This document shows positions 1 through 61,650 of a DNA stretch of 64,000 nt, one piece after another; the first letter of the stretch is position 1; each line of letters starts with the position of its first letter. The stretch lies in assembly GCA_017445025.1 (NCBI GenBank), contig JAFSVJ010000009.1, positions 1,536 to 65,535 of the forward strand, written 5' to 3'. Made by a program: the position numbers and the translations under genes. This DNA is from Abditibacteriota bacterium. GTDB taxonomy: Bacteria > Armatimonadota > UBA5829. The notes beneath the pieces were generated by a model that worked only from the letters and a program-made list of their open reading frames with translations, ran no database searches and was not told where the DNA came from.

Positions 1-806
1 TTGTGAACTTTTTGAAGATTACCATTAAAAGAACCGTTGGAAAAAGATATGGTAATTTTACCTGTATCCATATCTTCATTTATGGTATATTTTAAGTTGG
101 CTCCACCTTTTATATGAATAATATTATCTCTAAAATTGGCATATATATTCATATTGTCCACGATAAAGTTCTTAACTTTATTGCCTATATTAAGTTTTAA
201 ATATAGGCTTGAACCGGATTGACGAATTGGTTTTGTGTTTGGCACAGGAGTGTTTAATTTAAACATTGAGCGAGCAGAGTCGAGTGTCACCTGACCGAAA
301 AGAATATCTGCCACATTCTTAGGGTCTCTGTTTAAAGCGAGAGCGTTTGGATTGTGAACAGAGCCTATCAAATCCACCACCAAGCAATTATTCCAATAGG
401 AATATTCGTATGTGCTGGCAAAGGCAAATTCCAAATTAACAAAACCGTTTTCACAAGTGGCTGAAATAATCTTGTTGTAAATGGTGACATTATTGTTTCT
501 TCTTATATAATCTACACCCAAAGCACCACATAGCTCTGCTATATCAATAAAAGGCATATCATATTGGTTGTAAATATTGATATTTTTTTTACTTTTTTCC
601 AAAAAAATCATATTTAGACCGGAGGCACGGAAATCCAAGTCCAACTTAGACAAAATATCTATAGACATAAGGATTTTGTTTCCCTTCTCCAGGCTCATGG
701 CAGGAGTTATGGGCTGAGTTAAGCCTATAAAGACTTTAAAATCATCAGCCTCTGCCACAGAAGATAAAAGCAAAAACGCTAAAATTAATAATATATATTT
801 TTTCAT
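1..806 (-). CDS. Partial CDS (C-terminus lies beyond the window start); secreted hypothetical protein with N-terminal signal peptide (MKKYILLILAFLLLSSVAEA)
   Basis: Minus-strand frame is open from the ATG at 806 to the window edge, read manually. Hydrophobic signal peptide present. No motif recognised. Confidence 0.5.
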   Translation of the reverse strand, partial: MKKYILLILAFLLLSSVAEADDFKVFIGLTQPITPAMSLEKGNKILMSIDILSKLDLDFRASGLNMIFLEKSKKNINIYNQYDMPFIDIAELCGALGVDYIRRNNNVTIYNKIISATCENGFVNLEFAFASTYEYSYWNNCLVVDLIGSVHNPNALALNRDPKNVADILFGQVTLDSARSMFKLNTPVPNTKPIRQSGSSLYLKLNIGNKVKNFIVDNMNIYANFRDNIIHIKGGANLKYTINEDMDTGKITISFSNGSFNGNLQKVH

Positions 807-1829: not shown

Positions 1830-1859
1830 AAAACCAAATCCCAAAAAGTCTTGACGACT

Positions 1860-1985
1860 TTCCGGGTTGAATTGCGGCAATCTCGGGGTCCCCAAAAAGC
1901 CCTGCGAATAGCGAAAACAACCCAAGGGCTCCCGAAAAGTTGAAGCATCTGCGAAAACTTTTTGGGAATGGGTTTTAGGGGTGAA
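1860..1985. repeat. Copy of the mosaic GC-rich intergenic repeat family (modules gccgcaattcaacc / gggctcccgaaaagtt / cgaaaactttttgggaatgggttttaggg)
   Basis: Near-identical segments recur at 61420-61560, and partly at 36860 and 57395. See findings. Confidence 0.7.
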
Positions 1986-2039
1986 ATTTAAGATTTTTGA
2001 CTAGACCCTTGGAATTTCACAAAATAAAAATAAGATACC

Positions 2040-2120: not shown

Positions 2121-4952
2121 TCATGACAGTTTCCAATTAATCTTTAAAAAGTAGGTTTCACTTTCCCGTCTGTCTTTTGTGACAGCCCAAACAGCAATTT
2201 TACTGTCTTCCAAAATAAGGTTTACTCTTGTGGGATTGTCAAACTCATAAACCCAAAAGCCATCCTTATACTCAAAGAGACAATCCATTCCCCATATAGG
2301 ACAATTGTAAACTCCCTCAAGTTCTTCATAAGGCACATTAACTTTACATTTTATTATATTTTTCTCATTGGGATAGATAATATTATCATCATTAATTATG
2401 GCCTCGGTAATCTTTATGGAAGTGTCTAAAACAGGTGCGTTGTAATTTCCTGTTTCTCTGTCATAACCATAGAAAGCCATAGGAATGTTTTCATATTGAA
2501 GATACAACTCTCCGGCGGTAGTTTGTATTTCATTTATTTCATTCCACTTAACCTTATCTGTAATATCGGCAAAATAAACAAGTTTTATATTACAAAGAAA
2601 AGTCTCGAGTGTTAAAGCAACATCCTCTCCGTTTAAGGTTATTTTTGGCATCTCTCCTTCAATAAAAACACATAGCCACAGCCTGTCGGGACGATACCAC
2701 ATAATGTTTGATAAGATGTGATTTTTGCTGCAATGATTAAGTTTATCACCAACCTTTATAATTTCATCGGTTATATTATAACTATCAATTATCTTCTTTA
2801 TCTCACCTGAGGCAAAAAACGAACCTTTCCCCGCCTTTGTGGGAATATAAGTAGGTAATTTGGGTCTCTCTCTCCTTTCATCCTCTATAAGCCTGTCCGC
2901 AAGTTCCAAAACCATAACAGAATATTCGGGAACAATAAGATCAATTTTATCATTATAAGAGGCTTCTTTAACGGGAAATCTTTCGGGATAGATATTGTTT
3001 ATACAAACTTCTCCTCCCGTAAACCCTACTCGCTCATTAAGAACAAAACTAAAATTAAGGGGTTTATAACCTGAATTAACAAGAAAGATAAAACCTTTGT
3101 TATCTATAAGTTTGGAATATCCTTCTACTCCCACACCCACATGTTCCCCAAAAGGAATAGTATTTTTGCTATACTCCCAATTCTCTCTTTGCCAATTAAC
3201 CCAATATTTATAAAAATCTAAAACTTCTTTATCTAAATACCTTGGTACAATAGGCAAAGTTAAGGAACCGCCGCAAGCTATAACAGATAAGAGAGCATAT
3301 TTATATCCGCAATAGTCAAAAAGTTTATCGCAATCAGGCTCGTTAAACCAACCGCAATCCTGTGTCATATGGAAGGTTAAACCATGGTTGAGAGTTTGGT
3401 GCATAAATCTAAAGTAATAATTCCAATTAGATTGAAATCTCATATCAGAGGCAGTTTGCCTGTCAGCTGACATATCCTCAAAGAGAGGTATATCACAAAC
3501 TATATGGGCTTCCCAATAGCCTTCATGTTGATCTATGTATTTATATCCCCACAAGCCATATCTCTTGTTTCCGTAAAAACCGATTATGTATAAATCGGGA
3601 AATTCTCTTTTAAGCTCTGCCATTATTCTTAAATGATTGCGAAAGCCTTTATACTCTCCTTTACCTTTGAGATGACCGTGATTTTCACTAAAACAATACA
3701 TACAGTCACCGGGACCCGGGTCCCAATTCCAAAGTTTTAAGTTATACTTTCTGATAGTATTTTTTTGAACTTCAATATACCAATGCAAGAATTCTTTTGA
3801 GCCTATACAGTTTTCACGGCTTATATCTCCAAAAACATCTATTTTTTTCCATTTTGGGTTATCTGTATAATTTGAGTGAGGGTCATTGCAACCCTTAACA
3901 TTTACACTGGCACCCATATAGATTCCTATGTCAAGACCTTTGTTTTTGGCATAATCATATATCTCTTCCGCAAGAGTGTTTTCAGGAAAAAGCTCCCAGT
4001 AGGAATTCAAATCTTCATTAGGTATTTTATTTTCACATAAGGGGTTAAAAATTATGAGTTCTATACCTAATTTGACACAATTATCTATATGTTTGAAATA
4101 TCTCTCTTTTATATCTTCACCGGGATTATAAGGAAGATTGGAAAAATTATCGTAAGAGATAAATTTAAAGGGCTTTTTATCTGTTTCAAAATAGGTTTTT
4201 GTATATTCGTTAAATTCATAAGTTTCGGAAAAATATAGGGGTATGCCCTCACTTGGATTTCTGAAACGGGTGTAGTATCTGTCCCCTACTTTTTGAGTGG
4301 CATATTTGATTTGCTGAACTACTTTTTCTCCCCAAAGCTCATATAATCCTATAAAGTTAATATCACAATCAAATTCTTCTTTTGGTTCAAGGATTAAGTT
4401 AGGTTCAAACTCCACTCTGTTGCCGGATAGGTAAAAATATGGATTTTCAAAACCAAAGAACAAGCCTTTCTTCCCCTCTCGTGCGAAGACAGCCCCGGAA
4501 CCATACAAAAAAGTCCTATACAAAAAAGCTTCATCATAAGAATCAATACTCATACCAATCTTATAAAGTTCTGTTTTTTCAAAAAACTTTAAAGATAATC
4601 GTCTTTTAATGAAATTTTTTCCACAGAGCAAATACTCTAATTTAAAGACTGCCTTTTCACTCATATAGATATAATAATTATCTTTCTTTTGAACAGATAA
4701 TTTTGACAAATCATATATTCCTTTATTTGTTTCAATATAGATATTATCAGAGTGAAAGTCTATATCAATTTTGTTATTATCTAATTTAGTAATAAAACCA
4801 TGCTCATTTAACAAATAATCCATAGTAATACCTTTTTTTAATGCAAAATGCTGTCCCCCTAAGCCGAATTCAAAAAAAGTCAAATGTTCATCAACCTGAA
4901 ACAAGACGAACTCACCATCCTTAAACCACAAATTGCAAAAATGACCTGCCAC
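2121..4952 (-). CDS. Large cytoplasmic hypothetical protein, possibly a glycoside-hydrolase-like enzyme; start uncertain (a GTG at 4952 lacks an RBS; alternative Met at about 4823)
   Basis: A 943-aa open frame. No signal peptide. Aromatic-rich Asp/Glu-containing blocks (WNWDPGPGDCMYCF, GIYMGASVNV) suggest a TIM-barrel sugar hydrolase. No family motif was confidently recognised. Confidence 0.45.
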   Translation of the reverse strand: MAGHFCNLWFKDGEFVLFQVDEHLTFFEFGLGGQHFALKKGITMDYLLNEHGFITKLDNNKIDIDFHSDNIYIETNKGIYDLSKLSVQKKDNYYIYMSEKAVFKLEYLLCGKNFIKRRLSLKFFEKTELYKIGMSIDSYDEAFLYRTFLYGSGAVFAREGKKGLFFGFENPYFYLSGNRVEFEPNLILEPKEEFDCDINFIGLYELWGEKVVQQIKYATQKVGDRYYTRFRNPSEGIPLYFSETYEFNEYTKTYFETDKKPFKFISYDNFSNLPYNPGEDIKERYFKHIDNCVKLGIELIIFNPLCENKIPNEDLNSYWELFPENTLAEEIYDYAKNKGLDIGIYMGASVNVKGCNDPHSNYTDNPKWKKIDVFGDISRENCIGSKEFLHWYIEVQKNTIRKYNLKLWNWDPGPGDCMYCFSENHGHLKGKGEYKGFRNHLRIMAELKREFPDLYIIGFYGNKRYGLWGYKYIDQHEGYWEAHIVCDIPLFEDMSADRQTASDMRFQSNWNYYFRFMHQTLNHGLTFHMTQDCGWFNEPDCDKLFDYCGYKYALLSVIACGGSLTLPIVPRYLDKEVLDFYKYWVNWQRENWEYSKNTIPFGEHVGVGVEGYSKLIDNKGFIFLVNSGYKPLNFSFVLNERVGFTGGEVCINNIYPERFPVKEASYNDKIDLIVPEYSVMVLELADRLIEDERRERPKLPTYIPTKAGKGSFFASGEIKKIIDSYNITDEIIKVGDKLNHCSKNHILSNIMWYRPDRLWLCVFIEGEMPKITLNGEDVALTLETFLCNIKLVYFADITDKVKWNEINEIQTTAGELYLQYENIPMAFYGYDRETGNYNAPVLDTSIKITEAIINDDNIIYPNEKNIIKCKVNVPYEELEGVYNCPIWGMDCLFEYKDGFWVYEFDNPTRVNLILEDSKIAVWAVTKDRRESETYFLKINWKLS

Positions 4953-4954
4953 TG

Positions 4955-5285
4955 TTTTTTTAAGGAGGGGGGACCGTCGAACTCAAGGGTTCCCGGAAAA
5001 CCCCGCTTGCGAAATTTTTTGGGATTTGAGAAGCCGGTAGGTGGTCAGGAGTAAAATTTGCATAGAATTGCAAATTTATGATAGAAGCCTACTAATACAA
5101 ACCAACAACCCAAGTTAATAGATTTACCCTCTTTGAACTGAATTTGCAACCGCAAATTCCTTTCAAGGAAGGGGGACCGTCGAAGCCGGTGGGTGGTCAG
5201 GAGTAAAATTTGCAAAACTGCAAATTTTACGATAGAAGCCTAATAATTAAAGCCAACAACCCAAGTATAATAGCCCCCCCTATCA
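4955..5285. repeat. Two tandem copies of the mosaic intergenic repeat (core ggtggtcaggagtaaaatttgcaaaactgcaaattttacgatagaagcct)
   Basis: The core, with a perfect 12-bp inverted repeat gtaaaatttgca-aaac-tgcaaattttac, occurs at 5043-5092 and 5193-5242. Reverse-orientation copies are at 36720-36775 and 57115-57170, and a same-orientation copy at 61571-61620. Confidence 0.8.
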
Positions 5286-5286: not shown

Positions 5287-7503
5287 TTATTCCACTATAA
5301 ATATCTTTGTTTCAAGAGGAGCAAGTTCTGTCTTGGCCTTTATGGCTTTCCCCTTTGCTGTTTCCGCTTTTTGAGGATAAATCTCACTTATTGTATATGA
5401 AGATTTTTCCTTTAAATACAAATCCGAAGGTGTGGCTTCAAAATCAACTTTTATACTGTCATTTATCTGTATATTGGTCAAGCAAACCATAGTTTTTCCT
5501 TTGTAGTTAAAAGAACAAGTTCTCACAACGGGGAAATCATAATCTCCCAATATACCAAAGTTTTGCAAAAATATTTTATCTTTGGGAACAGAGCTTGTTA
5601 TAGTGACATTTCTAACCATTTCACCAAAGTTAAAGTATTCCTTTCCTGCCCATCGTGCTTCTGCCACACCTTTTACATATTTTCCAAAATAGGGATAAGC
5701 GTGAACCTCATCTCCCGTTCCGAAACCCCAGCCCGGTTGCCAACCTTTGGTTAATACTATAGCTGTTTTATTTATAGCGGGAAGAGCCTCTTGTCTTGTA
5801 AACTCCTCACCATAATAATAGTTTCCGAAACTTGCCACATATCCTGAATATATAACAGTATTTACTGGGCTGTCAGCCAAACTGTCATTTAATTCATTAC
5901 ATCTGAGCCAAGCATCAAAAGGATAAGCCTCTGCGGAAGATTCCGTTGTGATTACAATGGGTTCCCCCTTTATTTCATTTAATTTTTCTCTTATTTCTTG
6001 TATTAATTTGTAATATGTGTCAGCCCAATGAGAACCACCACCCACAGGGTGATTGTGATCTTTGTTAAAACAGGTGAAAGCGGGCACACAACCCACTTGA
6101 TCCATATACAAAGCGTCAATGTTTTCCTCTTTCATTATATTTTGAACTTCTTCAAGATAAGCATCATAATAAGGGGAAGTTGGGCAACATGTGACATTAT
6201 TGGCACCTTCAGCTTGAAACTCGGAAATTCTGGGTTTTTCGTCAGGACCGAAGGAAAGCAAAATGTCCCCATATTTTTTGTATGTGGGAGCTTGGTTTAT
6301 ATCTACAAGGTGAGTGTTTGTGTAAGGCATAACCTTAATATCTTTGGCTTGAAAATCCATAATATCCTGTTTATATCTGTCTTGTGCGGGAAGCCAATTG
6401 GGATAGTGAGTATCAAAGAGATATTGAGACCAGTGATATGTATGAACAGCCACAGGAACACCCAAAAACTCTTTGGTTTTTATAACATTGGCTTTGGTTT
6501 CATCCGTAAGTCCGTGTTGAGTAAGCCACATAGGACAATCTTTAAACCACTGTGGCAGGTCTGCTCTGTCTTCAATTTTACCTTGAGAGAAGGGAGCAAA
6601 GTTAGATTTAATTCCCCAAGCTCTGAATTTCTTGGCAACATCAAACCAGTCACCCTTTAATGTGGCAAAATTAAAGTTATAGGATTGAACATATTCCTTA
6701 CCACCCACACCCATATAATCGGGGTTAAGAGTAATATAGAAATTCATATTATCAGGCTTTGGGGTTTTGAAAGAAAAGATTTTATGCTCTGCCTTAACAT
6801 CTTCGGGAGACATATAAAGTGATGTGCCACCTTTGGTGACGGAGGTTAATTGGTTGGAACACACAACACCGGGATATTCCAAATCCATATTGGTATCGAA
6901 ACCGTCAGAGAAATTACCACCGTATTGAGGAAGCAAAACATTATTTCCCTTTGCCACATCAATATTTGTTATGTTAGGGAAAATAATTTGCCAAACCCCA
7001 TAATCTTGGTTGGAAGATATACCTATGTTCCAATAAGAATTGTTTTCCGCCAAGGCACAATAAACTGTCACGTCAAAACCTGAGTTCATCCCGTAGATTT
7101 TTACATTTTCCCATACCATTTTAAGAGCGTCGGGAGTGCGACTTTTTGCGTCTTTAAACTTTTGTTCGGATAAAGGCTTTGAGGAATCAATCTTACCATC
7201 GGCAACAAGTGGGGTGACGGTAAGTTTTTCCGCATCTCTCGGACCTAAAAACATGGAATCAGCGGTAAATTGGTTTGAAGGTTTACAAATAAATGACCAA
7301 AGATTGTTGTTTTCGTCAGTATCTGTAATAAAATTTACTCTTGTGCCGTTGTCGGCAATTTTGGATATGGTGGCATTATAATCATCAGAGATGAAAATGC
7401 CAACGGTTATATCTTTGTTTTTAATAATATAATCTTTTGATTGAGCATTACAACCCATGGTTCCTATTACAATAATAATCAATAAAAGATATAATTTTTT
7501 CAT
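5287..7503 (-). CDS. Secreted lipoprotein, putative glycan-active hydrolase
   Basis: Signal peptide with lipobox-like ...VIGTMGC|NAQ. A 738-aa frame with an RBS-free but clean start. Asp/aromatic-rich core (YHWSQYLFDTHYPNWLP, ALYMDQVGCVP). Family not recognised. Confidence 0.5.
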   Translation of the reverse strand: MKKLYLLLIIIVIGTMGCNAQSKDYIIKNKDITVGIFISDDYNATISKIADNGTRVNFITDTDENNNLWSFICKPSNQFTADSMFLGPRDAEKLTVTPLVADGKIDSSKPLSEQKFKDAKSRTPDALKMVWENVKIYGMNSGFDVTVYCALAENNSYWNIGISSNQDYGVWQIIFPNITNIDVAKGNNVLLPQYGGNFSDGFDTNMDLEYPGVVCSNQLTSVTKGGTSLYMSPEDVKAEHKIFSFKTPKPDNMNFYITLNPDYMGVGGKEYVQSYNFNFATLKGDWFDVAKKFRAWGIKSNFAPFSQGKIEDRADLPQWFKDCPMWLTQHGLTDETKANVIKTKEFLGVPVAVHTYHWSQYLFDTHYPNWLPAQDRYKQDIMDFQAKDIKVMPYTNTHLVDINQAPTYKKYGDILLSFGPDEKPRISEFQAEGANNVTCCPTSPYYDAYLEEVQNIMKEENIDALYMDQVGCVPAFTCFNKDHNHPVGGGSHWADTYYKLIQEIREKLNEIKGEPIVITTESSAEAYPFDAWLRCNELNDSLADSPVNTVIYSGYVASFGNYYYGEEFTRQEALPAINKTAIVLTKGWQPGWGFGTGDEVHAYPYFGKYVKGVAEARWAGKEYFNFGEMVRNVTITSSVPKDKIFLQNFGILGDYDFPVVRTCSFNYKGKTMVCLTNIQINDSIKVDFEATPSDLYLKEKSSYTISEIYPQKAETAKGKAIKAKTELAPLETKIFIVE

Positions 7504-7554
7504 ATTATTGCTTCTCCTTTTTATGATTTTTTTGTTTTCTGCCTAATTTGTCAG

Positions 7555-7640
7555 CCTCCCCCCCCCGAGCCCCCCTCCCTTATGACTGCATTTTGTCCCC
7601 CTAAGCCGATAGGCTTGGGGGGTGGATTTTTGCATAGCAA
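7555..7640. repeat. Partial copy (reverse orientation) of the repeat-family module gtccccctaagc...gcttggggggtgg
   Basis: Its reverse complement matches 57228-57258 (ccaccccccaagctgtcgcttagggggacag). This is a GC-rich imperfect palindrome in AT-rich DNA. Confidence 0.6.
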
Positions 7641-7711
7641 AAAGACGGGGGAATGGACATCTAAATGCAAATTTATGCATTCACTCGCTTTGCGATATAA
7701 AAGCATAAATA

Positions 7712-8815
7712 CTAATCAATTTCTGAATGTATATACGGTATCAAAAATTCTGCCCACATTTCACCGTGTTTTTTAATTCCTTTCAAGCTTAAGTGGATTC
7801 CTTTTCCCTCAAAGTCTCTGTATTCTTCTTGAAGAGTATCAGTATCGGGACCTTCAAAAGCTATTTTATTATCCCATATTCTTTGGAAAGCGGCTCTGAC
7901 TTTTTCGTCCCCTCTCATGTGTGGTCCATGATAAGAAACCTTTGCCACAAACCAAGGTATATACCAACCGGCGTCTTTTCGTGAGCTTTCAATAATGTTT
8001 ACGGTTAAATTATAGAAGAAATCAGTTTCGTTTCCCACATTGGATTCCCCTTGATGCCATATAACACATCTAAAACCCTTGTTTCCGAATTGATAAACCC
8101 TTTTCATAAAATAGCTATACATATCCGTTTGCCCATTTAATTTATCTTGCACAGGCATCCACTTTCCTTCGGCATTTAGAGCAAGTTTATGTCTGGTCAA
8201 TTCTAAACCGGCTCCCGGTTGCCAACGTTCCGCTTCACTTCCCCCCCAAGGGGTTGGAGCAAAACCAATGGGAACATGAAATTCTTTGTATAAAGCATCA
8301 CCCAATGCAGGATAAAAGGAACCTCCTATGCTTCCATCTTGAATGCCAATTTGAGGATCATCTCCGTATTTCCAAATAACACCGTCAGTAGAAGAAACCA
8401 TTCCACTTTCCTGTTTAGAAACTTCAGAGCTGGCATTAGAAGCGTTGGACTGACCGGCACTTATAATAACTTCTCCCACACCAACACAATCGATTTCTTT
8501 AAAACCGTCATTTCCGTATCGGAGTTGAAGGCGATACCAACCTCCCGCGGGGGTTTCAATATCTGCTTTAAAAGCACCGTATTTGTCCGGCTTTATAGTT
8601 TTCTCTATTATAATTTCTTTGTCTTGATAGTTTTTACCTATAATTTTGCAGTTAATTTTATCGGAAGATGTCTTTCCGCTTACCAAAATATAACCAACAC
8701 TCTTGGTCTGTCTTTGAAAAACTTGATAATTTGTAGGCGAGTAAAGAGTCATATCTTGAGCAAACAAACCTATCGAACAGAACATTAATACCAATCCCAA
8801 AAGTATTATTTTCAT
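7712..8815 (-). CDS. Secreted SGNH-type carbohydrate esterase, sialate O-acetylesterase-like (DUF303 family)
   Basis: Signal peptide MKIILLGLVLMFCSIGLFA. The GQSNASN and WHQGESN blocks correspond to the GQSNM and QGESD hallmarks of the DUF303/SASA esterase family. Confidence 0.6.
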   Translation of the reverse strand: MKIILLGLVLMFCSIGLFAQDMTLYSPTNYQVFQRQTKSVGYILVSGKTSSDKINCKIIGKNYQDKEIIIEKTIKPDKYGAFKADIETPAGGWYRLQLRYGNDGFKEIDCVGVGEVIISAGQSNASNASSEVSKQESGMVSSTDGVIWKYGDDPQIGIQDGSIGGSFYPALGDALYKEFHVPIGFAPTPWGGSEAERWQPGAGLELTRHKLALNAEGKWMPVQDKLNGQTDMYSYFMKRVYQFGNKGFRCVIWHQGESNVGNETDFFYNLTVNIIESSRKDAGWYIPWFVAKVSYHGPHMRGDEKVRAAFQRIWDNKIAFEGPDTDTLQEEYRDFEGKGIHLSLKGIKKHGEMWAEFLIPYIHSEID

Positions 8816-8916: not shown

Positions 8917-9663
8917 TTATCTCTTGATAGGCCACATGTTAATGGGAGTTGTTGTTGCTTCAGGCTTCATAGCCTTTGCGTGACCGTCAGCGAATGTCCA
9001 GTTGTCCATACCGTTGTGGTATCCCTTCATAGCTTTACAAGCGGGGTCGTTAAGCTCACTTCTTTGGTTACCAAAGGCAAGTAAGTATGTTTGGTAAGGA
9101 TTAATTGGTGGGAAGCAGGTGTCACCGTAAGCTATGTAGTTAAGAGTTCCCCAACCGTATCTCCATGTTTCAGCAACAAGAATTGTTTCGGCAGGATTGG
9201 CAATTTCTGCGTTAGTAATAACAGCTTCGGAAGTATCTCCGTCAAGGATGAATTGACACATACCGGACTCTCTGAAAATGTATACGTTACCACAATAAGA
9301 GTTTCTTCCGATGTGACCGTTCTGTTGCATCCAAGCAGCGAAACCATCGTCAGAGGGACATTTGAAAATTGTGGAGTGGCTCCATGTTCCTGCTTGACCC
9401 TTGTTACCTGCGTAAGGTAAAACCTTAATGGCCCAACCGTTGTATCCGCTACCGTTGGATGGGGGATAGGTTTCGTCATAGTCGTCTACGTAGAGCATAG
9501 TTGCCGTTCCGATTTGTTTCATATTGGACAGACAGTTAGCAGCTCTTGCTTTCTCTCTTGCTTGGGCAAATACGGGGAATAGAATTGCAGCAAGAATGGC
9601 AATTATAGCAATAACTACCAACAATTCTATAAGGGTAAATCCTTTTTTGAACATTGTGTTCAC
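8917..9663 (-). CDS. DUF1559-type protein with prepilin-type N-terminal cleavage/methylation domain (H-X9-DG family)
   Basis: N-terminus [29 protein letters not shown] is a type IV pilin-like signal. The C-terminal FADGHAKAM block matches the DUF1559 H-X9-DG signature. This family is typical of Planctomycetes, Verrucomicrobia and Lentisphaerae. Confidence 0.8.
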
Positions 9664-12643: not shown

Positions 12644-12730
12644 ATAATTGTCATGAAAATAAATTTTTCAAAATTTAATAGAGATTATTATTGCTGGTAT
12701 TCTGTTTAAAGATTACCGCAATATTTTCAT

Positions 12731-12794
12731 ATCGCGGTGAAAACCGCGGTTTTTTTATAAAAAAAGACCGCATCAGTAGAATGCGGTCTTTTTT
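12731..12794 (+). terminator. Two tandem intrinsic-terminator hairpins in the 5' leader of the porin-like gene (candidate attenuator or small RNA 3' end)
   Basis: Hairpin 1: cgcggt-gaaa-accgcg plus T8 (12731-12755). Hairpin 2: gaccgcat-cagtaga-atgcggtc plus T8 (12764-12794). They lie between the consensus promoter and the RBS/ATG at 12838. Confidence 0.55.
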
Positions 12795-12837
12795 TTGAGA
12801 ATTTTGAAAGGTTAAAAACAAAACTAAGGAGACTTAC

Positions 12838-14115
12838 ATGAAGAAACTTCTATTCACCCTTCTTGTGCTTATAATGGGATTATCTCTCTTTGCACAAGAC
12901 GCAGAGGAAAAACAAGAACCCTTTAAATTTTGGGGTTCTGTTGACGTTGACGTTATCAAAGGTGATGAATTGTATTTCAGAAACCCGGATGAATTTAAAT
13001 TAATGGGAAACCTTGAATTAAACGGAAACTACAAAATTAACGATCAGTGGGAACTTAACGGAACAGTTGTTGTAGGTAACTACCTAAAATCATTGGAATC
13101 TACTCCTCTTGAAAACATTCACCACATTTACTCCCAACTCTACTACTTAAACGCAAAGTATAAAAATGAAAACTGGGGAGATGTAAGCATAGGTTCCTTC
13201 GGCTTTAAAGTAAATCCATATGTTTTACAAAGAGTAACCAATGATGATTACTTCTCAAACCCACTCACACAAAGCGGAAACTACCCCCTCTTAGGTGTTA
13301 ATTGGAAAAACACCATAAACAATTTTTCTTACAACCTTTGGGGTGGAAGATTGGGCAAAAACGGTTTTGACGATGCCAACTTATACCTATATTCTTACAA
13401 TTTAGGTCAATTAAAAGACACTTATGGTGTAGATTTGGGTTATGACTTTGGTCCTGTTCAAATTAACGCTTTATGGTCTCACTTTACCGGTGATGCTGAT
13501 GAACTCGTTGACCCGGGTGCCGATAAGACAAATGTCTACGGTGGTGGTGTTAAAGTTCCCATCAAAAGTATAGATTCCATGGTTGCCGGTAACTACTACG
13601 CAAGAAAAGCCGATAACATTGATAACACAAAGATGTGGGATCTCTACTTTACAAAGAATTTCGGTAAATTCTACACCAAATTGGGATATATTTATGTTGG
13701 TGAACACTACAACGCTCCCGGTGACTGGATGATGCACACAAGAAACGGTAGCGGTATCAAGGGATGGCAACTTTACTGGAACGGACCTATTGCGGGCAAA
13801 TTCTCCACATACGGTTATTTTCACAAAGGTAAAGACTTTAACGAACTCACTGAAGGTCCTCTCTTTAAATCAAAGTTAGGTTTGATTTATACTTTTGATG
13901 AAAACAATAATATTAACTTTAACTGGACATACAAACACAGAAAAGCAGACGCAGTTGACAGTCATGTAATAGATAACTACTGGTTTATTGGTTTCACTCA
14001 CATATTTGACGAACACATGAAAATCAGTTTAAACTATGAACTTAACAGATTCAACTATGATATAGACGACGGAACAAAAGACATGTTCTACACTCAATTC
14101 ACTTATTCATTCTAA
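12838..14115 (+). CDS. Putative outer-membrane beta-barrel (porin-like) protein
   Basis: Signal peptide MKKLLFTLLVLIMGLSLFA. The composition is rich in Gly, Tyr and Asn with alternating residues. The C-terminus ...QFTYSF ends in an aromatic residue (Phe), which is typical of outer-membrane beta-barrels. RBS aaggag. Confidence 0.55.
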   Translation: MKKLLFTLLVLIMGLSLFAQDAEEKQEPFKFWGSVDVDVIKGDELYFRNPDEFKLMGNLELNGNYKINDQWELNGTVVVGNYLKSLESTPLENIHHIYSQLYYLNAKYKNENWGDVSIGSFGFKVNPYVLQRVTNDDYFSNPLTQSGNYPLLGVNWKNTINNFSYNLWGGRLGKNGFDDANLYLYSYNLGQLKDTYGVDLGYDFGPVQINALWSHFTGDADELVDPGADKTNVYGGGVKVPIKSIDSMVAGNYYARKADNIDNTKMWDLYFTKNFGKFYTKLGYIYVGEHYNAPGDWMMHTRNGSGIKGWQLYWNGPIAGKFSTYGYFHKGKDFNELTEGPLFKSKLGLIYTFDENNNINFNWTYKHRKADAVDSHVIDNYWFIGFTHIFDEHMKISLNYELNRFNYDIDDGTKDMFYTQFTYSF

Positions 14116-14220: not shown

Positions 14221-15248
14221 TTATATAAATTGCAATTTATCTATTGCTGCAATTAAATCCATTTTTGGTAATCGAGTATATACATCAAGGGTTACATCTT
14301 TATACTTATGACCCATGATCTTTTTAATTGCTATAATATCTACTTTATTTTTAAGCATGTAATATGAAAAACTTTGCCTACAATTTTTAGGAACATGATC
14401 AAAAGAATGTTTTGAAAAGATTTGACGCAATTTTGATTCTGAGAAATTAAATACACCTTGTTTAACTTCTTCTGTTATTTTAAGAATATCTTTATGTATT
14501 GGAACTACTCTGTTAATTCCGGCTTCTGTTTTACTACCGGTTATTATATAACGTTCGTTTAAGTGAAATTCACTTATTTTTGATATTTCATTAAATCTTA
14601 TTCCCGTATATAAATAAAAAAGTTGTAATTTACAGGACAATTCATCTTTGTTTTTCCAAAGTTCTTGTATCTCACCAACTGTATAATTATTCTCCTCTTT
14701 TTTCGCTTGTGAAGATGAAGAAATTGCAATTGACGTTGCGTAATTTTTGGTAGCCCAGTCTTTATTTACAGCATATTCTGATAATTTCACCAACATTGTT
14801 CTAACTTTGCTTTGCATGGGGTATCCATATTTTAAAGTCTTAAATAAATTTACATAATCTTGGTGTTTAATATCACTCATAAGTTTGTTATGTAAAACAG
14901 CACAATCTTTAAAAGCTATTTTAGTATCCTTCTTCCAACTTTTGCTTTTATTTCCAAAAATGGTTATATAGTTAAACCATTGTTTGAATGCAACCTCAAA
15001 TGTAATTAGGACTAGATCATCAGGGTGTTCCTTTTTACAATTTTTTAAGGCTTCTTTTGCTTCTTCTTCTGTTTGGTAGTTTCCTAATGTTTTTTGAATT
15101 CTTTTAATTGTGCCATCTTCAGAAATATTATATGTTTGCGGTAATACTACTCTCCATTGCTTTTTTAATTCCGGACGGTTTATCTTGAAAATAGATTCTT
15201 CGCCTTTTTGTCTTCTTTTATATTCTATTTTTTTCTAAGTCTACCCAT
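14221..15248 (-). pseudogene. Tyrosine recombinase / phage-type integrase, interrupted by a frameshift in an A7 homopolymer (T7 on the plus strand at 15228-15234)
   Basis: The C-terminal catalytic region has TGIRFNEI (Arg) and IMGHKYKDVTLDVYTRL (His, Arg, Tyr). The open frame continues 107 codons upstream of the annotated Met with no ATG. The ATG at 15248 (MGRLRKK) is restored to frame by a +1 A in the A7 tract. Confidence 0.75.
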
Positions 15249-15638
15249 TCAAAATCCTCAAAATAATAATTTACTCCTATATATACCAATAAATTTACAT
15301 AAATTGACTTTTGTTAATATTTTATTATATTTTTCTTTAGATAATGGTATTTTAATTTGAAAAAACATTTTGTGGTATAATAAAGTTTTTTTGTATGCAG
15401 TTTAATCTTACTGTTTATGATTTTATTGTTTTCATAGGAAACCAAGGTAGAGAGATTTTTCTTTACCTTTTTTTATTTTTTAAGTTTTTTATGATTTTTA
15501 TTAAAATAAAATCAAAAAACGCTGATTTAATTGAAGATTTAGATATTTATATTAAGAATCTAAAAGAATAATTTAGTATAATTAAAGTTAAGTTTTCTTA
15601 TTTTTCAAAAAATAATATATATTTTTTGTTTTAAACAT

Positions 15639-15663
15639 AAAAAAAAGACCTGTTGAGAGGTCT
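15639..15663 (-). terminator. Rho-independent terminator downstream of the Panacea-pair operon
   Basis: Minus-strand stem agacct-ctcaac-aggtct followed by T7. Confidence 0.55.
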
Positions 15664-15701
15664 GCTTTAGTTATATTGTTTATATAATTTTAATATTCTA
15701 T

Positions 15702-15998
15702 TTAAGTCGTTATCATTAAGTTTGCCTTCATAGAGTTATAATCAGTAATCTCTGAAATATCAAATTCCATATAAGAATCAAGTTTGATAAAGGTTTCTTT
15801 TGGAAATGGTGGATAATACTGTTCTATAAGATAGTTACTTTCAAAATATAATCTGCTTTCCTTTCCTCTTAATGAAGAAGCATTTAATACTCCTATTTTT
15901 GAACCTGTCACTTTAACAATTAGATAAAATCTGTTATATTCCGGAAAAGTCCCATCCTTAAACCTAAGTTTTGTGAATATTGCCTGTCCTACTTCCAT
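15702..15998 (-). CDS. Small hypothetical protein; candidate toxin partner of the upstream Panacea-domain protein
   Basis: A 98-aa ORF whose start overlaps the stop of the Panacea gene by 1 nt (ATGA). No motif recognised. Confidence 0.45.
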   Translation of the reverse strand: MEVGQAIFTKLRFKDGTFPEYNRFYLIVKVTGSKIGVLNASSLRGKESRLYFESNYLIEQYYPPFPKETFIKLDSYMEFDISEITDYNSMKANLMITT

Positions 15999-16642
15999 TA
16001 GTATGCTTGCACTTCTCCGTCATCAAGGAATAAAGACATTGCCACTTCATCTGTAACTAAAGAAAGATCATATAGCTTGTCATAATCTTTGTCTGTTAAT
16101 GTGATTTCTTTTGGGTTGTAGTAAAATCTCACACCGTTAATGACTTCATAAACCTCTTCTTTATCCCTATTTTCGTAAGTAGAAATAACCTTATAGGTTT
16201 TATCTATTTCCTTTTTTATTAATTCTGTAGGGATAACAGCATCACCGGGATTGGTTTTGGATGATTTTTTATATGTGTCATTCCAAAAATTAAAGGTGTG
16301 ATTAAGTTCGGAAAGTTCCTTTGCAGAATAATGACTGAAAATTTCATTGGTAAGTTCTAATACTTTATCGGTTTCTTTAGAGAAGTTTGGCTTAAAGGCA
16401 AGACTGTCTTTCAAAAAAGTATTAAAATTATCTTTAAATTTGAGACGAACATCTCCTATTACACAACCTTGTTTAAAGGCAAATATATTGTCTTTGTATA
16501 AAGGAGAGTTGTATAGTGATAGGTTTATCAGATATGCAAACAGAAGCAGTTTCTGCAATTTCATATTACTGTCAAAGTTAGACTGTTGAATATCAAGATT
16601 GGTTTTAACAAAGAATTTAGCTAAATCGTAAACATTTTCCAT
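15998..16642 (-). CDS. Panacea-domain (DUF4065, SocA/GepA-like) putative antitoxin
   Basis: ...MKLQKLLLFAYLINLSL...AFKQGCVIGDV matches the KLQKLLYfa...AWeyGPV core of DUF4065. Start set at MENVYD (16642), which has a strong AAGGAGG RBS, rather than the ORF-track start at 16666. Confidence 0.55.
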   Translation of the reverse strand: MENVYDLAKFFVKTNLDIQQSNFDSNMKLQKLLLFAYLINLSLYNSPLYKDNIFAFKQGCVIGDVRLKFKDNFNTFLKDSLAFKPNFSKETDKVLELTNEIFSHYSAKELSELNHTFNFWNDTYKKSSKTNPGDAVIPTELIKKEIDKTYKVISTYENRDKEEVYEVINGVRFYYNPKEITLTDKDYDKLYDLSLVTDEVAMSLFLDDGEVQAY

Positions 16643-17012
16643 AATAAACCTCCTTTTACTAACCATACTATTATACTATATTTTATTTATTTTGTCAAAT
16701 ATTAAACCAGCAATAATATATACTTATATTTTGAACCCAAAGTTCCCAAAGTAAGAATTAATATGTGTTTTTTCTGATTTTTGAGATTTAGGGTCAAACT
16801 GTCAAAATTAATGAACAATTTTTAAAAACTATAAAAAAACTGTTTTTTTAGTGGATTTTTGTAGTAAAAATATAGTATAATATATTGAGAGATATTTAAA
16901 ACAGCTTTCTTTTACGCCTATTATTATTAATTTGAAAAAACACTTAAAATATTATATAATAATTATGTGTATCTAATTATAAATAATAGTATAATTTAGT
17001 TATAAAGTAAAA

Positions 17013-18887
17013 ATGACAGACGAGAAGCCTTTTGAGTTAAAATTGAATAATGACAAATATGTGACAATAGATGAACTAACAAAAATAGATTTAGCCGGAA
17101 CTAAGCCTATTGATTTTGTTATAGGTAATAATCCACCGGTTTCTGTTAAGTTTTGGCGTTTATTATTAAGTAAAACCGTAGATGAACTCATAAAACTATA
17201 TCCACATAAAGATATATTGCACTTTTCCTCTGCCAATACAAGAATGCTATTATTTTCTTATAACAAAGAGGATTTACACAGAGGTGAACTATTATCTAAT
17301 GGTTTGTTTTTGGAAACCTGTTTTAGCTCTAATAAAGTAGTTGAATTAATCAAAGCTTTTTTTGATTTCTTCGGGTATAAAGGTGAGTATTTATTAAATT
17401 ACAGACGGGAGAGAACTCCTTCTATACAAAGAAGAAATCAAAAATTAAATATTGTTGAAACAAGTAATGAACAAAATTTTAATAAAGAAAATATAAATAA
17501 TTCATTTGAATTATATGATAAAGAATTAATAGATATAGCTAATGTTATATTAGAAGAAAAGTTTTCTAATGCTTTTAGATTAAATTCAAATATTGCTAAA
17601 AATAAGTTTAGGAGGGCTTATTTTGATTTATTGGGTAAAGAGTTAATAGAAGAGTTTAATATAGATGATTTAATTAAGACTTTAGGAGTTGTTTTTGAAG
17701 ACAAAGTATATATAATATCATCAAAAGCAAAAGATATTTTAAGTGAATTAATTAATGAAGCAATAATAAATAATAATAATATAATTTATTATAAAGATTT
17801 TTATGATAAGAATAGTTCAATTCTTTCTTCTTTAAACATTTTCAATTATGAAATATTAAAAAAAGTAATTCAGTCATATTTTGAAAATCTATTTATTGAT
17901 ACTCATTTTTTTAAACCATTGGAAGATAATAATTTAGTTAATGATTTAGTTGAATGCTTTAAAGGGAAAGACATGTTGTCTATATATGAAATAAAGAATA
18001 AACTATTATATACTGATATTAATCACATTAAAAGAATGTTACAATTAGATAAGAATTTTGTATTTGCCAAAAGATATAATTATATGTATGTAGAAAACTT
18101 ATCTATTTCTACAGATGATGTTGAAGAAAGTAAGAAAATAATAGAAAAATCCTTTACTGACAAAGGAACAGCCAGTTTATCCGATATAGTTGTTAATAAT
18201 AGTATAAATTTAAACTATAATGCAACTGAAAATGCTTTACGAGAGGCAATATTCATTAAATGTTTATCTAATATGTGTGACAGAAACAGATCCATATTAT
18301 ATCCCAAGGGAAAAGATAAAATATCCGGTGCTTTATTAATGGAGGAATATTGTTTAAGTCATAATAAAGTCACTGTAGAAGAATTAGAAGAATATGAAAA
18401 CAAAATGACTGGTCATACTTATTTTTGGTTGATAAAAGCTATGAATAATATGATAAGAGTGGATCAAAAAACATTTGTTAGTTTTGATTTAATTGAATTC
18501 GATATTGAAAAAACTAATGAAGCTATTGGAAGATTTATATATGATAAGATAGTTCCCTTTAAGAAAATAGATAGTTTTATTGGGTTTCCTGAAGTGGAAG
18601 GATATATTTGGAATAAATATTTATTAGCTTCTTTTTGTTTACATGTAAGTAATAAATATAATTCTTGGCATAAATTTGCTAAGAATGATATTTTAGGTGG
18701 AATATATCCTAATACAATGGAGATAGATAGTTATAATGACTTTTTATATTATGTGGTATTAGAAAACAATATACCATTAACTAATGAATCTATTAATCTT
18801 TTTTTAAAAGATAATGGTTATATAAAGAAAAACATAAATACAGATTGGATAATATCTAAAATTAACGAATATAAGGAAGTAAATTAG
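17013..18887 (+). CDS. Uncharacterised 624-aa protein, first gene of the defence operon; translationally coupled to the downstream BrxP-like gene
   Basis: No recognisable motif and very N/K/I-rich. Its TAG stop overlaps the GTG start of the next gene (tagtg at 18885-18889). Confidence 0.5.
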   Translation: MTDEKPFELKLNNDKYVTIDELTKIDLAGTKPIDFVIGNNPPVSVKFWRLLLSKTVDELIKLYPHKDILHFSSANTRMLLFSYNKEDLHRGELLSNGLFLETCFSSNKVVELIKAFFDFFGYKGEYLLNYRRERTPSIQRRNQKLNIVETSNEQNFNKENINNSFELYDKELIDIANVILEEKFSNAFRLNSNIAKNKFRRAYFDLLGKELIEEFNIDDLIKTLGVVFEDKVYIISSKAKDILSELINEAIINNNNIIYYKDFYDKNSSILSSLNIFNYEILKKVIQSYFENLFIDTHFFKPLEDNNLVNDLVECFKGKDMLSIYEIKNKLLYTDINHIKRMLQLDKNFVFAKRYNYMYVENLSISTDDVEESKKIIEKSFTDKGTASLSDIVVNNSINLNYNATENALREAIFIKCLSNMCDRNRSILYPKGKDKISGALLMEEYCLSHNKVTVEELEEYENKMTGHTYFWLIKAMNNMIRVDQKTFVSFDLIEFDIEKTNEAIGRFIYDKIVPFKKIDSFIGFPEVEGYIWNKYLLASFCLHVSNKYNSWHKFAKNDILGGIYPNTMEIDSYNDFLYYVVLENNIPLTNESINLFLKDNGYIKKNINTDWIISKINEYKEVN

Positions 18888-21238: not shown

Positions 21239-21249
21239 GAGTTTTCATA

Positions 21250-25461: not shown

Positions 25462-25465
25462 TATT

Positions 25466-27619: not shown

Positions 27620-27629
27620 GGATTAAAGT

Positions 27630-29093: not shown

Positions 29094-29106
29094 ATGGTAA
29101 TTAATA

Positions 29107-29307
29107 ATGAAAAAAGTTTACAATTGTTGTGCTTGTGGAAAAAGAAATTTAGAAAAAGATGAAATAGCGGTTTGTAAGAAAATGTTAGGTAGGAAAATAG
29201 AAAAGTTTTTCTGTTATGACTGTTTAGCAAATTATTTGGATTGTTCGGTTCAAGATATTTTAGATAAAATTGAAGAATTTAAAGCTCAAGGATGTAAACT
29301 GTTTTAA
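29107..29307 (+). CDS. Small zinc-ribbon protein
   Basis: 66 aa with CCACGK...C...CYDC Cys pairs. Lies between the BrxL-like and OLD-like genes in the same operon. Confidence 0.45.
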   Translation: MKKVYNCCACGKRNLEKDEIAVCKKMLGRKIEKFFCYDCLANYLDCSVQDILDKIEEFKAQGCKLF

Positions 29308-29322
29308 ATAACAACTAATAAT

Positions 29323-36666: not shown

Positions 36667-36689
36667 ACTTGTTATTTCAAATATCACCC

Positions 36690-36900
36690 CCCTACGTCCG
36701 AGCGGGTGGCTAAAATTATTAGGCTTTTATCGTAAAATTTGCAGTTTTGCAAATTTTACTCCTGACCACCCACCGGCTTCGCCGGTCCCCCCCTCCTTGA
36801 AAGGAATTTGCTGTTGCAAATTCAGTTCAAAGAGGGTGAATCTAACAACTGAGGCCTTTTGCCGCAATTCAACCCCTTACGTAGTAGGGGGAGGAGTTGT
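36690..36900. repeat. Reverse-orientation copy of the mosaic intergenic repeat (core aggcttttatcgtaaaatttgcagttttgcaaattttactcctgaccaccc plus cccccctccttgaaaggaatttgctgttgcaaattcagttcaaagagggtg)
   Basis: Reverse-complement matches to 5100-5240. It generates the spurious ORF 36653-36928. Confidence 0.8.
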
Positions 36901-43084: not shown

Positions 43085-43195
43085 CTGCTTTTGATAAAGG
43101 GAACGGTAAATGTGTCCCCTATTTCCGAAGGAAATGAGGGGTGGCATTTGCCGAAGCAAATGACGGGGGAAATAAGTGGTTTTCAAAGAAAATCA
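43085..43195. repeat. Partial copy of the mosaic repeat family (modules gggaacggtaaatgtg / gcaaatgacggggg); two GNRA-type hairpins
   Basis: Reverse complement of 57440-57480 (ggggaacggtaatgtgg). Shares gcaaa(a/t)gacgggggaa with 7640-7660. Confidence 0.55.
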
Positions 43196-43328
43196 CATTT
43201 TGTGTAGCAAAATAATTATTTATACAATTAAAGATAAGTCTATTTTTAATATTAATTATCTTTAAAGTTGCAAAAAATAAAAAAAATGTGTATAATAATA
43301 TTGTATATATTTGTCAAAAGGAGAGTAA

Positions 43329-56813: not shown

Positions 56814-57084
56814 ATAATATCCTCCAAAAAGAAGCTGACTTACACTTATACACTTATATTATAACACATTTAAAGATTTTTTACAATTTTAAATGCTATA
56901 AAAATATATATTTTATAAACTTTTTTAAAAAAAAGAGATTTTTGAGATATTTATGATTTATTTATCAAAAAAATGTATATCTTAAAAATCGGAAAAGAAA
57001 AAAGCACTCAAAGAGTGCTTTATATATGAGGTGTTCATCTCAAAATTTGTTAAACTGTTGCAGTGCATAAAGGGAGAGGGAGGC

Positions 57085-57480
57085 TGATATACTTGAGTAG
57101 CTCTGTTAAATTATTACGTTTCTATCGTAAAATTCACAGTTTTGCAAATTTTACTCCTGACCACCCACCACAATCCAAATCCCTAGAAGTCTTATATCCA
57201 TCCCCCCGTCATCTCTCCGAGATGCCACCCCCCAAGCTGTCGCTTAGGGGGACAGACTTTTTGGGGTCTAGTCAAAAATCTTTAATGGTAAAGATTTTTG
57301 CCGTCGGTCACCGAAAAATCATAGATTTTCCGGCTCTTGCTAAAAACGACAAGCAGTTGTCGTTTTTACAAAAAAGCGATGCTTTTTTGCCGCAATTCAA
57401 CCTTGGATATGGCTATCGCCTTGTGGTCCCCTTCCACATTACCGTTCCCCGTGGATTAGGGGACAATTACATCTCAAAGA
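57085..57480. repeat. Large reverse-orientation copy of the mosaic intergenic repeat
   Basis: Contains the core ...cgtaaaattcacagttttgcaaattttactcctgaccacccacc, the ccaccccccaagctgtcgcttagggggacag module, gccgcaattcaacc, and ccgttccccgtggattaggggac. Generates the spurious ORF 57063-57485. Confidence 0.8.
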
Positions 57481-61239: not shown

Positions 61240-61374
61240 TATAACACCTATTTCATTCCAAATCCCAAAAAGTCTCGACAACTTTTCGGGAACCCTCAGA
61301 AAATAATACCTATTATATTATATCACTTTTTATTACAAAAAAACAATTTCAAAAAAACATATACACAAACCCAC

Positions 61375-61650
61375 GCGTGAAAATATTCACCCTCTTTCTC
61401 ATCCCAAAAAGTTGAGCTTGCGAAACGACCCAAGGGCTCCCGAAAAGTTTCGCACGGCCCCCCCACGGGAAAATCAAAGATTTTCCTCGTAGCCCCCCTA
61501 AAGGGGGTTCATTGATAAAAAAGCGAAAACTTTTTGGGAATGGGTTTTAGGGATTTGGATTGCGGTGGGTGGTCAGGAGTAAAGTTTGCTAAACTGCAAA
61601 TTTTACGATAGAAGCCTACTAACTTAAACCAACAATCCGGAATTGTGAGG
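61375..61650. repeat. Copy of the mosaic intergenic repeat (same orientation as 4955-5285)
   Basis: gggctcccgaaaagtt..., cgaaaactttttgggaatgggttttaggg, and ggtgggtggtcaggagtaaagtttgctaaactgcaaattttacgatagaagcct. Confidence 0.8.

Follow-up and report, generated by a model that had tools for sequence, protein, structure and literature searches.

Mosaic GC-Rich Hairpin Repeats in the Intergenic DNA of an Abditibacteriota Bacterium

A 64-kb stretch of contig JAFSVJ010000009.1 from an Abditibacteriota bacterium (the whole of which is referred to here as the window) was found to contain roughly eight hairpin-forming, GC-rich modules: M1, M3, X, K, P, a 16-mer, the T hairpin, and a set of A/T-flanked hairpins. 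The modules were found only in intergenic DNA, at a frequency far above chance, and their stems are held by G.U wobble pairs and some compensatory changes. Seven intergenic regions, designated A–G (B being the locus at 4955–5285), share these modules in orders and orientations that differ from locus to locus. The modules probably constitute a new family of non-coding, intergenic, interspersed palindromic repeats of the kind represented by the REP sequences (repetitive palindromes outside genes) and bacterial interspersed mosaic elements (BIMEs), by BOX elements, or by MITEs (miniature transposable elements with inverted repeats), and they are probably mobilized in trans. This assignment is supported by repeat numbers far above chance, the hairpins themselves, the nesting of one module within another, mixed orientation, avoidance of a low-GC island in the window, and the parallel presence of unrelated repeats in a distant relative.

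Results and Discussion

Copy Number and Composition of the Modules

The seven regions were each read directly and were compared by repeat detection and an all-against-all blastn search. Chance expectations for the repeats were obtained from shuffles of the window. The tally for the window is five copies of M1, five of the X hairpin, three to four of the K double hairpin, two of M3, and three of the 16-mer, in addition to smaller pieces. M1 (GGTGGGTGGTCAGGAGTAAAATTTGCAAAACTGCAAATTTTACGATAGAAGCC) occurs twice in B (5036 and 5187, plus strand), once each in D (36713) and F (57108; both minus strand), and once in G (61563, plus strand), with identities of 62–100%. The 49-nt core of M1 was matched three times with 3 or fewer mismatches, relative to 0.00 expected (100 shuffles). 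The X pattern CCCGRAAARY..RYTTTTTGGGA was matched four times with 0 expected in shuffles, and an X covariance model recovered the five window copies, the copy in contig L001 (a Joint Genome Institute, JGI, metagenome contig from another sample), and no others. The 16-mer TTGCCGCAATTCAACC was present in three exact copies, compared with 0.07 expected. The segment GCGAAAACTTTTTGGGAATGGGTTTTAGGG is identical at 30/30 positions between 1951 and 61523, and the GC palindrome at 57228–57251 has its reverse complement at 7597–7622.

The window as a whole is 33% GC, and 30-nt windows within the seven regions peak at 60–83% GC. The earlier description of the repeats as GC-rich thus holds for the hairpin modules and not for the entire intergenic regions, which are only 26–43% GC (E 26%, F 35%, A 37%). 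No other intergenic regions are as rich in high-GC 30-nt windows as these seven. Two others, 54336–54611 and 1–812, also reach 60% GC, the former reading as ordinary sequence without modules. Outside the low-GC island, GC-rich windows of the element kind were found in 7 of the ~20 listed intergenic regions; within the intergenic regions of the island there were 0.

The modules quoted in the original prediction were located by direct reading at or near the positions given there. Its coordinates were broadly right, except that region A spans 1834–2008 rather than beginning at 1860, and its list of seven regions stands with the addition of an X copy at 61258–61299 and a 16-nt fragment of K at 4852–4867 that had been missed. 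The features identified are listed below.

Region A, 1834..1872, minus strand: X copy A1 (CCCGGAAAGTC-GTCAA-GACTTTTTGGGATTTGG), 58.1 bits with X model R1, ending 10 nt before the hrcA ATG at 1829
Region A, 1865..1880, minus strand: exact copy of the 16-nt module TTGCCGCAATTCAACC
Region A, 1886..1980, plus strand: long X variant A3+A2 (GGGGTCCCCAAAAAG..ACCCAAGGGCTCCCGAAAAGTT-loop-GCGAAAACTTTTTGGGAATGGGTTTTAGGG), inverted relative to A1, 70.6 bits, 30/30 to 61523–61552
Region A, 1990..2008, plus strand: 19-nt module common to F (reverse complement of 57264–57282), 19/19 identical
4852..4867, plus strand: 16-nt K fragment (GTCCCCCTAAGCCGAA), 16/16 identical to 7594–7609
Region B, 4958..5034, plus strand: M3 fragment (3' part) followed by X copy B1, which is nested in the M3/M1 junction, 64.7 bits
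Region B, 5036..5115, plus strand: M1 copy B1, degenerate, with a 9-bp stem (repeat family D2)
Region B, 5119..5176, plus strand: M3 hairpin with an outer stem of 11 bp and an inner stem of 8 bp, 92% to 36788–36850
Region B, 5187..5270, plus strand: M1 copy B2 (reference), with a perfect 12-bp stem, AAAC loop, and tail ..CCAACAACCCAAGT; the element ends 1–5 nt away from the DUF6259 gene's stop codon at 5287
Region C, 7551..7584, plus strand: C-run module P (TCAGCCTCCC..CTCCCTTATG), common to the minus strand of F at 57066–57087 (direct reading)
Region C, 7594..7652, plus strand: K double hairpin (TGTCCCCC-hp1-GGGGGGTGG-hp2-GACGGGGGA)
Region D, 36686..36698, plus strand: left end CACCCCCCTACGT, which may form a short inverted repeat with the 36873–36891 hairpin; the ends pair in the fold (weak, ~8 bp)
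Region D, 36707..36780, minus strand: M1 copy, 95% to 5171–5255
Region D, 36786..36844, minus strand: M3 copy
Region D, 36859..36891, plus strand: 16-mer TTGCCGCAATTCAACC fused to the hairpin CCCCTTACGTAGTAGGGGG, which is also present in the relative L004 at 6139–6157
Region E, 43099..43114, plus strand: module GGGAACGGTAAATGTG, common to F (reverse complement of 57436–57451; direct reading)
Region E, 43112..43172, plus strand: K double hairpin, both helix sequences unlike those of the C and F copies
Region E, 43176..43196, plus strand: flanking 9-bp hairpin (GTGGTTTTC-AAA-GAAAATCAC)
Region F, 57066..57087, minus strand: P copy (direct reading, compared with C)
Region F, 57108..57185, minus strand: M1 copy with two G.U-preserving stem changes (TGTGAA)
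Region F, 57198..57256, minus strand: K double hairpin
Region F, 57264..57402: four unique hairpins with A-run/T-run flanks and 9–12-bp stems, plus the 16-mer at 57387–57402
Region F, 57426..57464, minus strand: hairpin GTCCCC..GGGGAC, the loop of which carries GGGGAACGGTAATGTG, starting 3 nt past the stop codon of the 807-aa gene
Region G, 61258..61299, minus strand: X copy G1, located within the LRR_5 gene leader (ATG at 61239), 64.8 bits
Region G, 61398..61552, plus strand: long X variant G3+G2, the loop being a 73-nt multi-hairpin K-like segment at ~61450–61522, 53.7 bits
Region G, 61563..61650, plus strand: M1 copy, 91%, a few nt separating its end from the 772-aa gene's stop codon at 61658

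Regions A–E are base-identical (100%) in two or three independently assembled European Nucleotide Archive (ENA) metagenomes from different samples, and an assembly artefact is therefore excluded for these five. The samples behind the ENA records are labelled XIEF21. The 807-aa and LRR (leucine-rich repeat) proteins had no database record on look-up, which leaves F and G without a second assembly. It is extremely improbable that the repeats are duplicated gene-fragment remnants (pseudogene debris) or the product of misassembly or chimerism, and these explanations are largely refuted. The spurious open reading frames (ORFs) with the peptide ..FYRKI.SFANFTPDHPP that were originally predicted do exist, and frames through several copies share FYRKICSFANFTPDHPP. 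However, no candidate homologue sharing even three 5-residue words was found for the peptide among 5.8 billion proteins, there was no Pfam match, the frames and their lengths differ among copies, and the variation tracks stem pairing rather than codon position. An artefact is further opposed by the occurrence of the modules in the JGI contig. Confinement of the copies to the window without conserved hairpins, or descent from one duplicated gene fragment, would have spoken against the original prediction; instead, a copy lies outside the window in L001, the hairpins are conserved, and no gene-fragment origin was found.

Folding and Conservation of the Stems

For each of the seven regions, at least one strand folded far better than shuffled sequences (z = -2.2 to -6.9). 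M1 is ~80 nt in length, with one copy in L001 in addition to the five in the window, and its G-rich strand folds into a 5-bp outer stem, of which two pairs are G.U, then a 2-bp step and a 12-bp hairpin. In the M1 consensus, 19 pairs vary solely by wobble. With the degenerate copy B1 set aside, the 12-bp stem exhibits wobble changes in F, G, and L001 and a single loop-closing U.U in G, and no pair of the M1 stem was altered on both sides. M3 is an 11+8-bp hairpin that is represented by the two window copies and by L001. The X hairpin has loops of 5 to 73 nt with 97% of the aligned cells paired, and its stem contains one fixed G.U, one polymorphic A:U/G.U, and one double change from G:C to A:U.

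The K module is found in C, E, and F, and a K-like segment occupies the loop of X copy G2. In K, two helices are flanked by C- and G-runs that are conserved (TGTCCCCC..GGGGGGTGG..GACGGGGGGA); the helix sequences are unlike in every copy, and their pairing is kept (TTTTTGC/GCAAAAA, CATCTC/GAGATG, and CATTTGC/GCAAATG). Pairs were not counted for K, since its MAFFT alignment (A4) does not agree with the structure.

When the modules were folded individually, the G-rich strand was the more stable in 17 of the 18 copies, which suggests that a single strand, either single-stranded DNA (ssDNA) or RNA, is the relevant form. The minimum free energies of the whole regions did not favor either strand consistently. 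The per-module asymmetry and the wobble-only variation in M1 are also what would be expected of independently transcribed, structured small RNAs, that is, a novel class of noncoding RNA (ncRNA) encoded on the G-rich strand, and a weak promoter-like site on the minus strand at 36931–36904 points into D. Against this explanation, modules that are shuffled, truncated, nested, and tandem would not be tolerable for a discrete RNA gene, no consistent promoter or terminator was found, and the promoter-like matches are mostly near chance. The Rfam search that had been proposed as a check gave no match on the element regions, even at E <= 5; only tRNA-Ser reached the gathering threshold. The earlier suggestion of a structured ncRNA family survives in weakened form, given the Rfam result, the mixed orientation, and the position of E between divergent predicted promoters, and we consider independently transcribed small RNAs to be very improbable.

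Nesting, Shuffling, and Signs of Insertion

The M3/M1 junction reads ..ACCGTCGAA/GCCGG.. in B2 and ..ACCGGCGAA/GCCGG.. in D, with no X at this point. The same junction (..TCGAA/GCCGG) holds a 55-nt X in B1 and in L001, ..TCGAA[CYCAAGGG...GGGATTTGRG]AAGCC.., and the outer stem of the nested X covaries, being CTCAA/TTGAG in B1 and CCCAA/TTGGG in L001. The nested X is flanked by GAA..(G)AA, and the two occurrences possibly derive from a single event. The loop of X is itself variable, at 9 nt in A2 versus the 73-nt multi-hairpin segment in G2. Region B is a tandem array, [M3'-X-M1][M3-M1], with a spacing of 151 nt, which bears out the tandem pair that had been predicted there, and the module order in L001 is tail-M3-X-M1. 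X copies are arranged as inverted pairs in A (1834–1872 versus 1886–1980) and in G, and the K copies are single. M1 is located behind two paralogous genes in F and G in opposite orientations, and it therefore did not simply duplicate together with these genes. Between the two ends of D, only ~8 bp are shared.

One contig from a third sample (L029) is 99.94% identical to the window across hrcA and diverges completely from window position 1838/1839. This breakpoint falls 5 nt into the ATTTGG tail of X copy A1, close to the 3' edge of that copy; upstream of ..TTTGGTTTTATG, L029 has 56 nt of unrelated sequence (positions 1–56). The scaffold is gapped, with an N gap followed by different sequence (L029 1755–1765, near window 131–141). 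The breakpoint, the sole difference between strains that was detected, hints at structural instability at the border of an element, and it is not a clean empty site.

Relatives of the Repeats

A scan of GTDB genomes with a 21-mer of M1 gave 0 matches, and one with HrcA returned only Firmicutes relatives at ~33% identity; the lineage was not reached by these scans. The metagenome scan identified a single contig, L001, with the same M1+X+M3 composite at 90–98% identity, situated between a stop codon and a terminator. A search with the cupin protein of L001 returned the protein itself and widespread cupins only. Viral contigs contained four matches to an M1 16-mer, all attributable to chance and none extending, and plasmid and phage blastn searches gave no matches. 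An origin of the elements in phage or plasmid DNA was rejected on the basis of these searches.

The contigs with the closest orthologues are L004 (70% amino acid identity), which shares only the 19-nt hairpin CCCCTTACGTAGTAGGGGG, and L005 (66%), which shares no modules. Neither is syntenic with the window. Contigs L027 and L028 have no such repeats. The distant relative L006 (a 279-kb contig of 33% GC, with an orthologue that is 52% identical) was found to have mosaic hairpin repeats of its own that are unrelated in sequence. These are located in three intergenic regions directly after stop codons, and they exhibit compensatory stem changes as well as identical stems with different loops. Since the unrelated repeats of L006 are placed alike, the kind of element appears to be a trait of the lineage while the sequences turn over.

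L006 also contains a recurrent motif that resembles a promoter plus an operator (TTGACA..TATAAT..AAGTGGTACCGTTATAC) at 7830–7891, 9041–9102, and 22466–22527. It is upstream of several genes, two of which are N_methyl/DUF1559 genes, and near LacI-family regulators; it is probably a LacI-type operator.

Genomic Position and Neighboring Genes

The genes beside the elements include hrcA, those for a 943-aa protein of unknown function, a DUF6259/GHL6 protein, and an SASA esterase, nadC, tRNA-Ser, tag, and the genes for a wza-like exporter, a beta-propeller protein, two ~800-aa paralogues, and an LRR_5 protein. The DUF6259 protein is 100% identical to one recorded for an Abditibacteriota bacterium. 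The proposal that the repeats are regulatory or terminator cassettes of a secreted-enzyme regulon is unsupported, because the flanking genes, among them hrcA, nadC, tRNA-Ser, tag, the wza-like exporter, and the LRR protein, share no function. Only two module hairpins were flagged as terminators, neither of them at a gene end, and most lack a T-tract; genuine terminators are found outside the modules and adjoining the elements, at 2099–2078 and 57021–57001. Promoter-like sites numbered 43 versus 33.6 in the scan of A–C and 18 versus 16.6 in the scan of F–G, both near chance, and 34 versus 23.9 ± 4.0 in shuffles for the scan of D and E, which is moderately above. No promoter was tied to a module border in the three scans. 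The hrcA leader of ~200 nt consists almost wholly of repeat modules. A CIRCE (controlling inverted repeat of chaperone expression) operator before hrcA (813–2120) was rejected; the motif is absent from the entire window.

Five of the eight composites (B, D, F, G, and L001) are located ~20 nt or less from a stop codon, and F and L001 are placed between the stop codon and a genuine terminator. Region A and X copy G1 are in gene leaders, and E is outside any predicted transcript, between divergent predicted promoters. Relative to the flanking genes, the G.U strand, which folds better, is antisense in B, D, G-M1, A2, and G2, and sense in F, L001, A1, G1, and C.

This distribution bears on the possibility that the repeats are host-selected, cis-acting RNA: a reused functional cassette that forms stem-loop arrays in 3'-untranslated regions (3'-UTRs) and between cistrons, and hairpins in 5' leaders, such as X before hrcA and the LRR gene. 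The proposed roles are protection from 3'-exonucleases, attenuation of read-through, and slowed termination at the stop codon. The proximity of the composites to stop codons, with two of them preceding a true terminator, is as expected for such a function, as are the similar placement of the unrelated hairpin repeats of L006, the two X copies that share one orientation and occupy leaders immediately upstream of start codons, and the maintenance of stems by G.U and compensatory changes. However, the orientation of the G.U strand relative to the genes is mixed, being antisense in about half; E is outside the predicted transcripts; the flanking genes have no common function; most hairpins have no U-tract; and most intergenic regions have no element. 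On balance, we regard host-selected, cis-acting RNA as unlikely. Selection for a 3'-UTR function is a serious rival to mobile repeats, given the adjacency to stop codons in two unrelated families.

The elements also affect gene calling. The 943-aa ORF begins in the ENA gene call at a GTG at 4952 and reads through the K fragment at 4852–4867; the ATG at 4823 is the likelier start, and the N-terminal extension is probably spurious. The longest hrcA ORF (TTG at 1925) runs through region A, and the real start is the ATG at 1829. Further spurious ORFs that arise from the elements are a 140-aa ORF at 57063–57485 and a 91-aa ORF at 36653–36928. Within the 943-aa gene, the contigs of both ENA assemblies break at window 3288–3295 (L007 and L008 end at ~3295, and L030 and L031 start at ~3288), which suggests a strain-variable or repeated site.

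The low-GC island (14221–32032) is 24% GC compared with ~36% in its flanks and carries defense genes. It encodes an integrase fragment and a SocA/Panacea antitoxin; a BREX-like set composed of a PAPS-reductase protein, a 1403-aa protein without a Pfam match, a DUF7862-7864 protein, and a BrxL Lon-like protease; and a Gabija-like pair composed of an OLD/TOPRIM ATPase and a UvrD-like helicase. The right flank of the island is covered by two ENA contigs, both of which begin at window 31998, beside the island edge. At 32157–34730 there is a protein with seven Big_2 domains and 243-nt tandem repeats (33288–34316), which in one ENA assembly (L002, 160–2478) is 772 aa instead of 857 aa in length; the difference is either repeat copy-number variation or assembly collapse.

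Two further features were noted. The segment at 12687–12840 (22% GC, before the gene at 12838–14115) gave sub-threshold Rfam matches, including Thr_leader at 39 and 35 bits on the two strands, MicC, and others, which are most likely a composition artefact. Tandem 12-nt GC-rich repeats (CCGGGTCCCATA and similar) at 55389–55725 are inside the beta-propeller gene (54612–56813, minus strand), where they probably encode a low-complexity protein segment and are unrelated to the intergenic modules.

Comparison with Known Repeat Families

The MITE/REP-like reading of the original prediction fits best, in that the elements are non-coding, hairpin-forming, mosaic, in both orientations, nested, intergenic, and off the foreign island. 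The REP, BIME, and REPIN (REP doublet forming a hairpin) elements of Proteobacteria are mobilized by Y1 transposases known as RAYTs (REP-associated tyrosine transposases) (PMC3116915, PMC3337134). In such systems the cognate RAYT gene usually has REPs on its flanks, and the replicative unit is an inverted REP doublet that folds as a single long hairpin. REPINs have conserved flanks and a hairpin spacer with compensatory changes, and the sequences of REPIN families differ by lineage (PMC3116915). The repeats described here are similar to these elements in being short, GC-rich, imperfect palindromes that are exclusively extragenic, occur in mosaic clusters of variable orientation, and are often directly 3' of genes. 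As in REPINs, the flanks are conserved and the spacer is bound only to form a hairpin, with compensatory changes, and as in REPs, each lineage has its own sequence family (the window versus L006). They differ in that many distinct modules are present here rather than one to three REP types, and the host is an AT-rich Abditibacteriota metagenome-assembled genome, outside the groups with documented REPIN-RAYT systems.

BOX elements are composed of boxA-boxBn-boxC in streptococci, with permutations of A/B/C/D/E/F in Streptococcus suis (PMC3049150). Like BOX, the repeats in the window are composites in which separate modules are combined in varying numbers and permutations; they are strongly folded, intergenic, and tens to hundreds of base pairs in length, and BOX elements were likewise once suspected of being regulon signals from their neighboring genes. 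Unlike BOX, they have no sequence similarity to those elements and no recognized fixed termini of the boxA/boxC kind, and their modules are GC-rich relative to the genome. A similar situation is found in the GC clusters of yeast mitochondria, which are mobile with an AG target-site duplication (PMC4478555). Here too, GC-rich palindromic hairpins are scattered in very AT-rich intergenic DNA as singles and tandem arrays, the hairpin is constrained, and there is no element-encoded transposase. The yeast clusters, however, belong to a eukaryotic organelle and have the defined AG duplication, none being established here, and the sequences are unrelated.

The STAR elements of Staphylococcus (PMC3532100) are also GC-rich, interspersed, intergenic repeats of a low-GC genome, but they are direct-repeat arrays and not hairpins. 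The STAR consensus T(G/A/T)TGTTG(G/T)GGCCC(C/A) had one 2-mismatch match in the window, inside a gene, versus 2.4 expected. The repeats resemble MITEs (PMC3184786) in being small, non-autonomous, and folded; unlike classical MITEs, clear terminal inverted repeats, target-site duplications, and a parent insertion sequence (IS) are not demonstrated, and there is no IS in the window. Integron attC sites were rejected, there being no cassettes and the flanking genes being housekeeping genes.

Proposed Mode of Spread

The elements have probably spread, or been reshuffled, as selfish, non-autonomous DNA that behaves like REP/BIME/REPIN, BOX, or MITE sequences. The likeliest route would be through single-stranded hairpins formed by the G-rich strand and recognized by a transposase or a nuclease whose gene is located elsewhere in the genome, for which, by analogy, a Y1/HUH enzyme of the RAYT or IS200/IS605 type would be the obvious candidate. 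Insertions would persist solely at sites where they do no damage, namely immediately 3' of stop codons, within leaders, and within older copies. If the elements are co-transcribed, their stem-loops would probably act, as a putative side effect, as 3' stabilizers of the mRNA or as brakes on translation termination.

Several points weigh against a family of mobile palindromic repeats. The conserved 5' GTAG of REPs is absent, and GTAG was found on direct reading only sporadically and at no fixed position (the B1 variant, the T hairpin, and the loop of G2). The M1 copies in B are direct rather than inverted repeats, unlike the arrangement in REPINs. There is no RAYT or IS gene among the 40 window ORFs that were scanned, and mobility is inferred rather than demonstrated because no empty site, target-site duplication, or transposase was found in the sequence examined. 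The strand asymmetry is partly circular, since the G.U strand was by definition taken as "top," and folding is in any case better for G-rich strands. The recurring position after stop codons in two families unrelated in sequence could just as well reflect selection for a 3'-UTR function. Finally, the family was examined in the window and in one contig of the lineage (L001, 2.2 kb).

A more speculative version is that the repeats are a bacterial counterpart of the yeast mitochondrial GC clusters, in which strand-asymmetric cassettes would merge, nest, and settle behind stop codons by a mechanism that is independent of RAYT or IS enzymes, for example through an RNA or ssDNA hairpin, with a set of cassettes specific to each lineage. 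We consider this decidedly improbable.

Conclusions

If the assignment to REP/BIME-, BOX-, or MITE-like repeats is correct, this would be the first interspersed-repeat family described for the Abditibacteriota; metagenome-assembled genomes are the only source from which the phylum is known here, and a literature search turned up no mention of one. The absence of the elements from the BREX/Gabija island would then mark the island as recent. For annotation, the elements create spurious ORFs and false N-terminal extensions; one contig of this genome (L029) terminates within region A; and the elements are possible markers for strain typing. The REPs of E. coli reportedly modulate mRNA stability or translation termination, as Liang, Rudd, and Deutscher are said to have described in 2015. 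The hairpins that abut stop codons in this bacterium could likewise modulate the mRNA stability or translation termination of the genes upstream.

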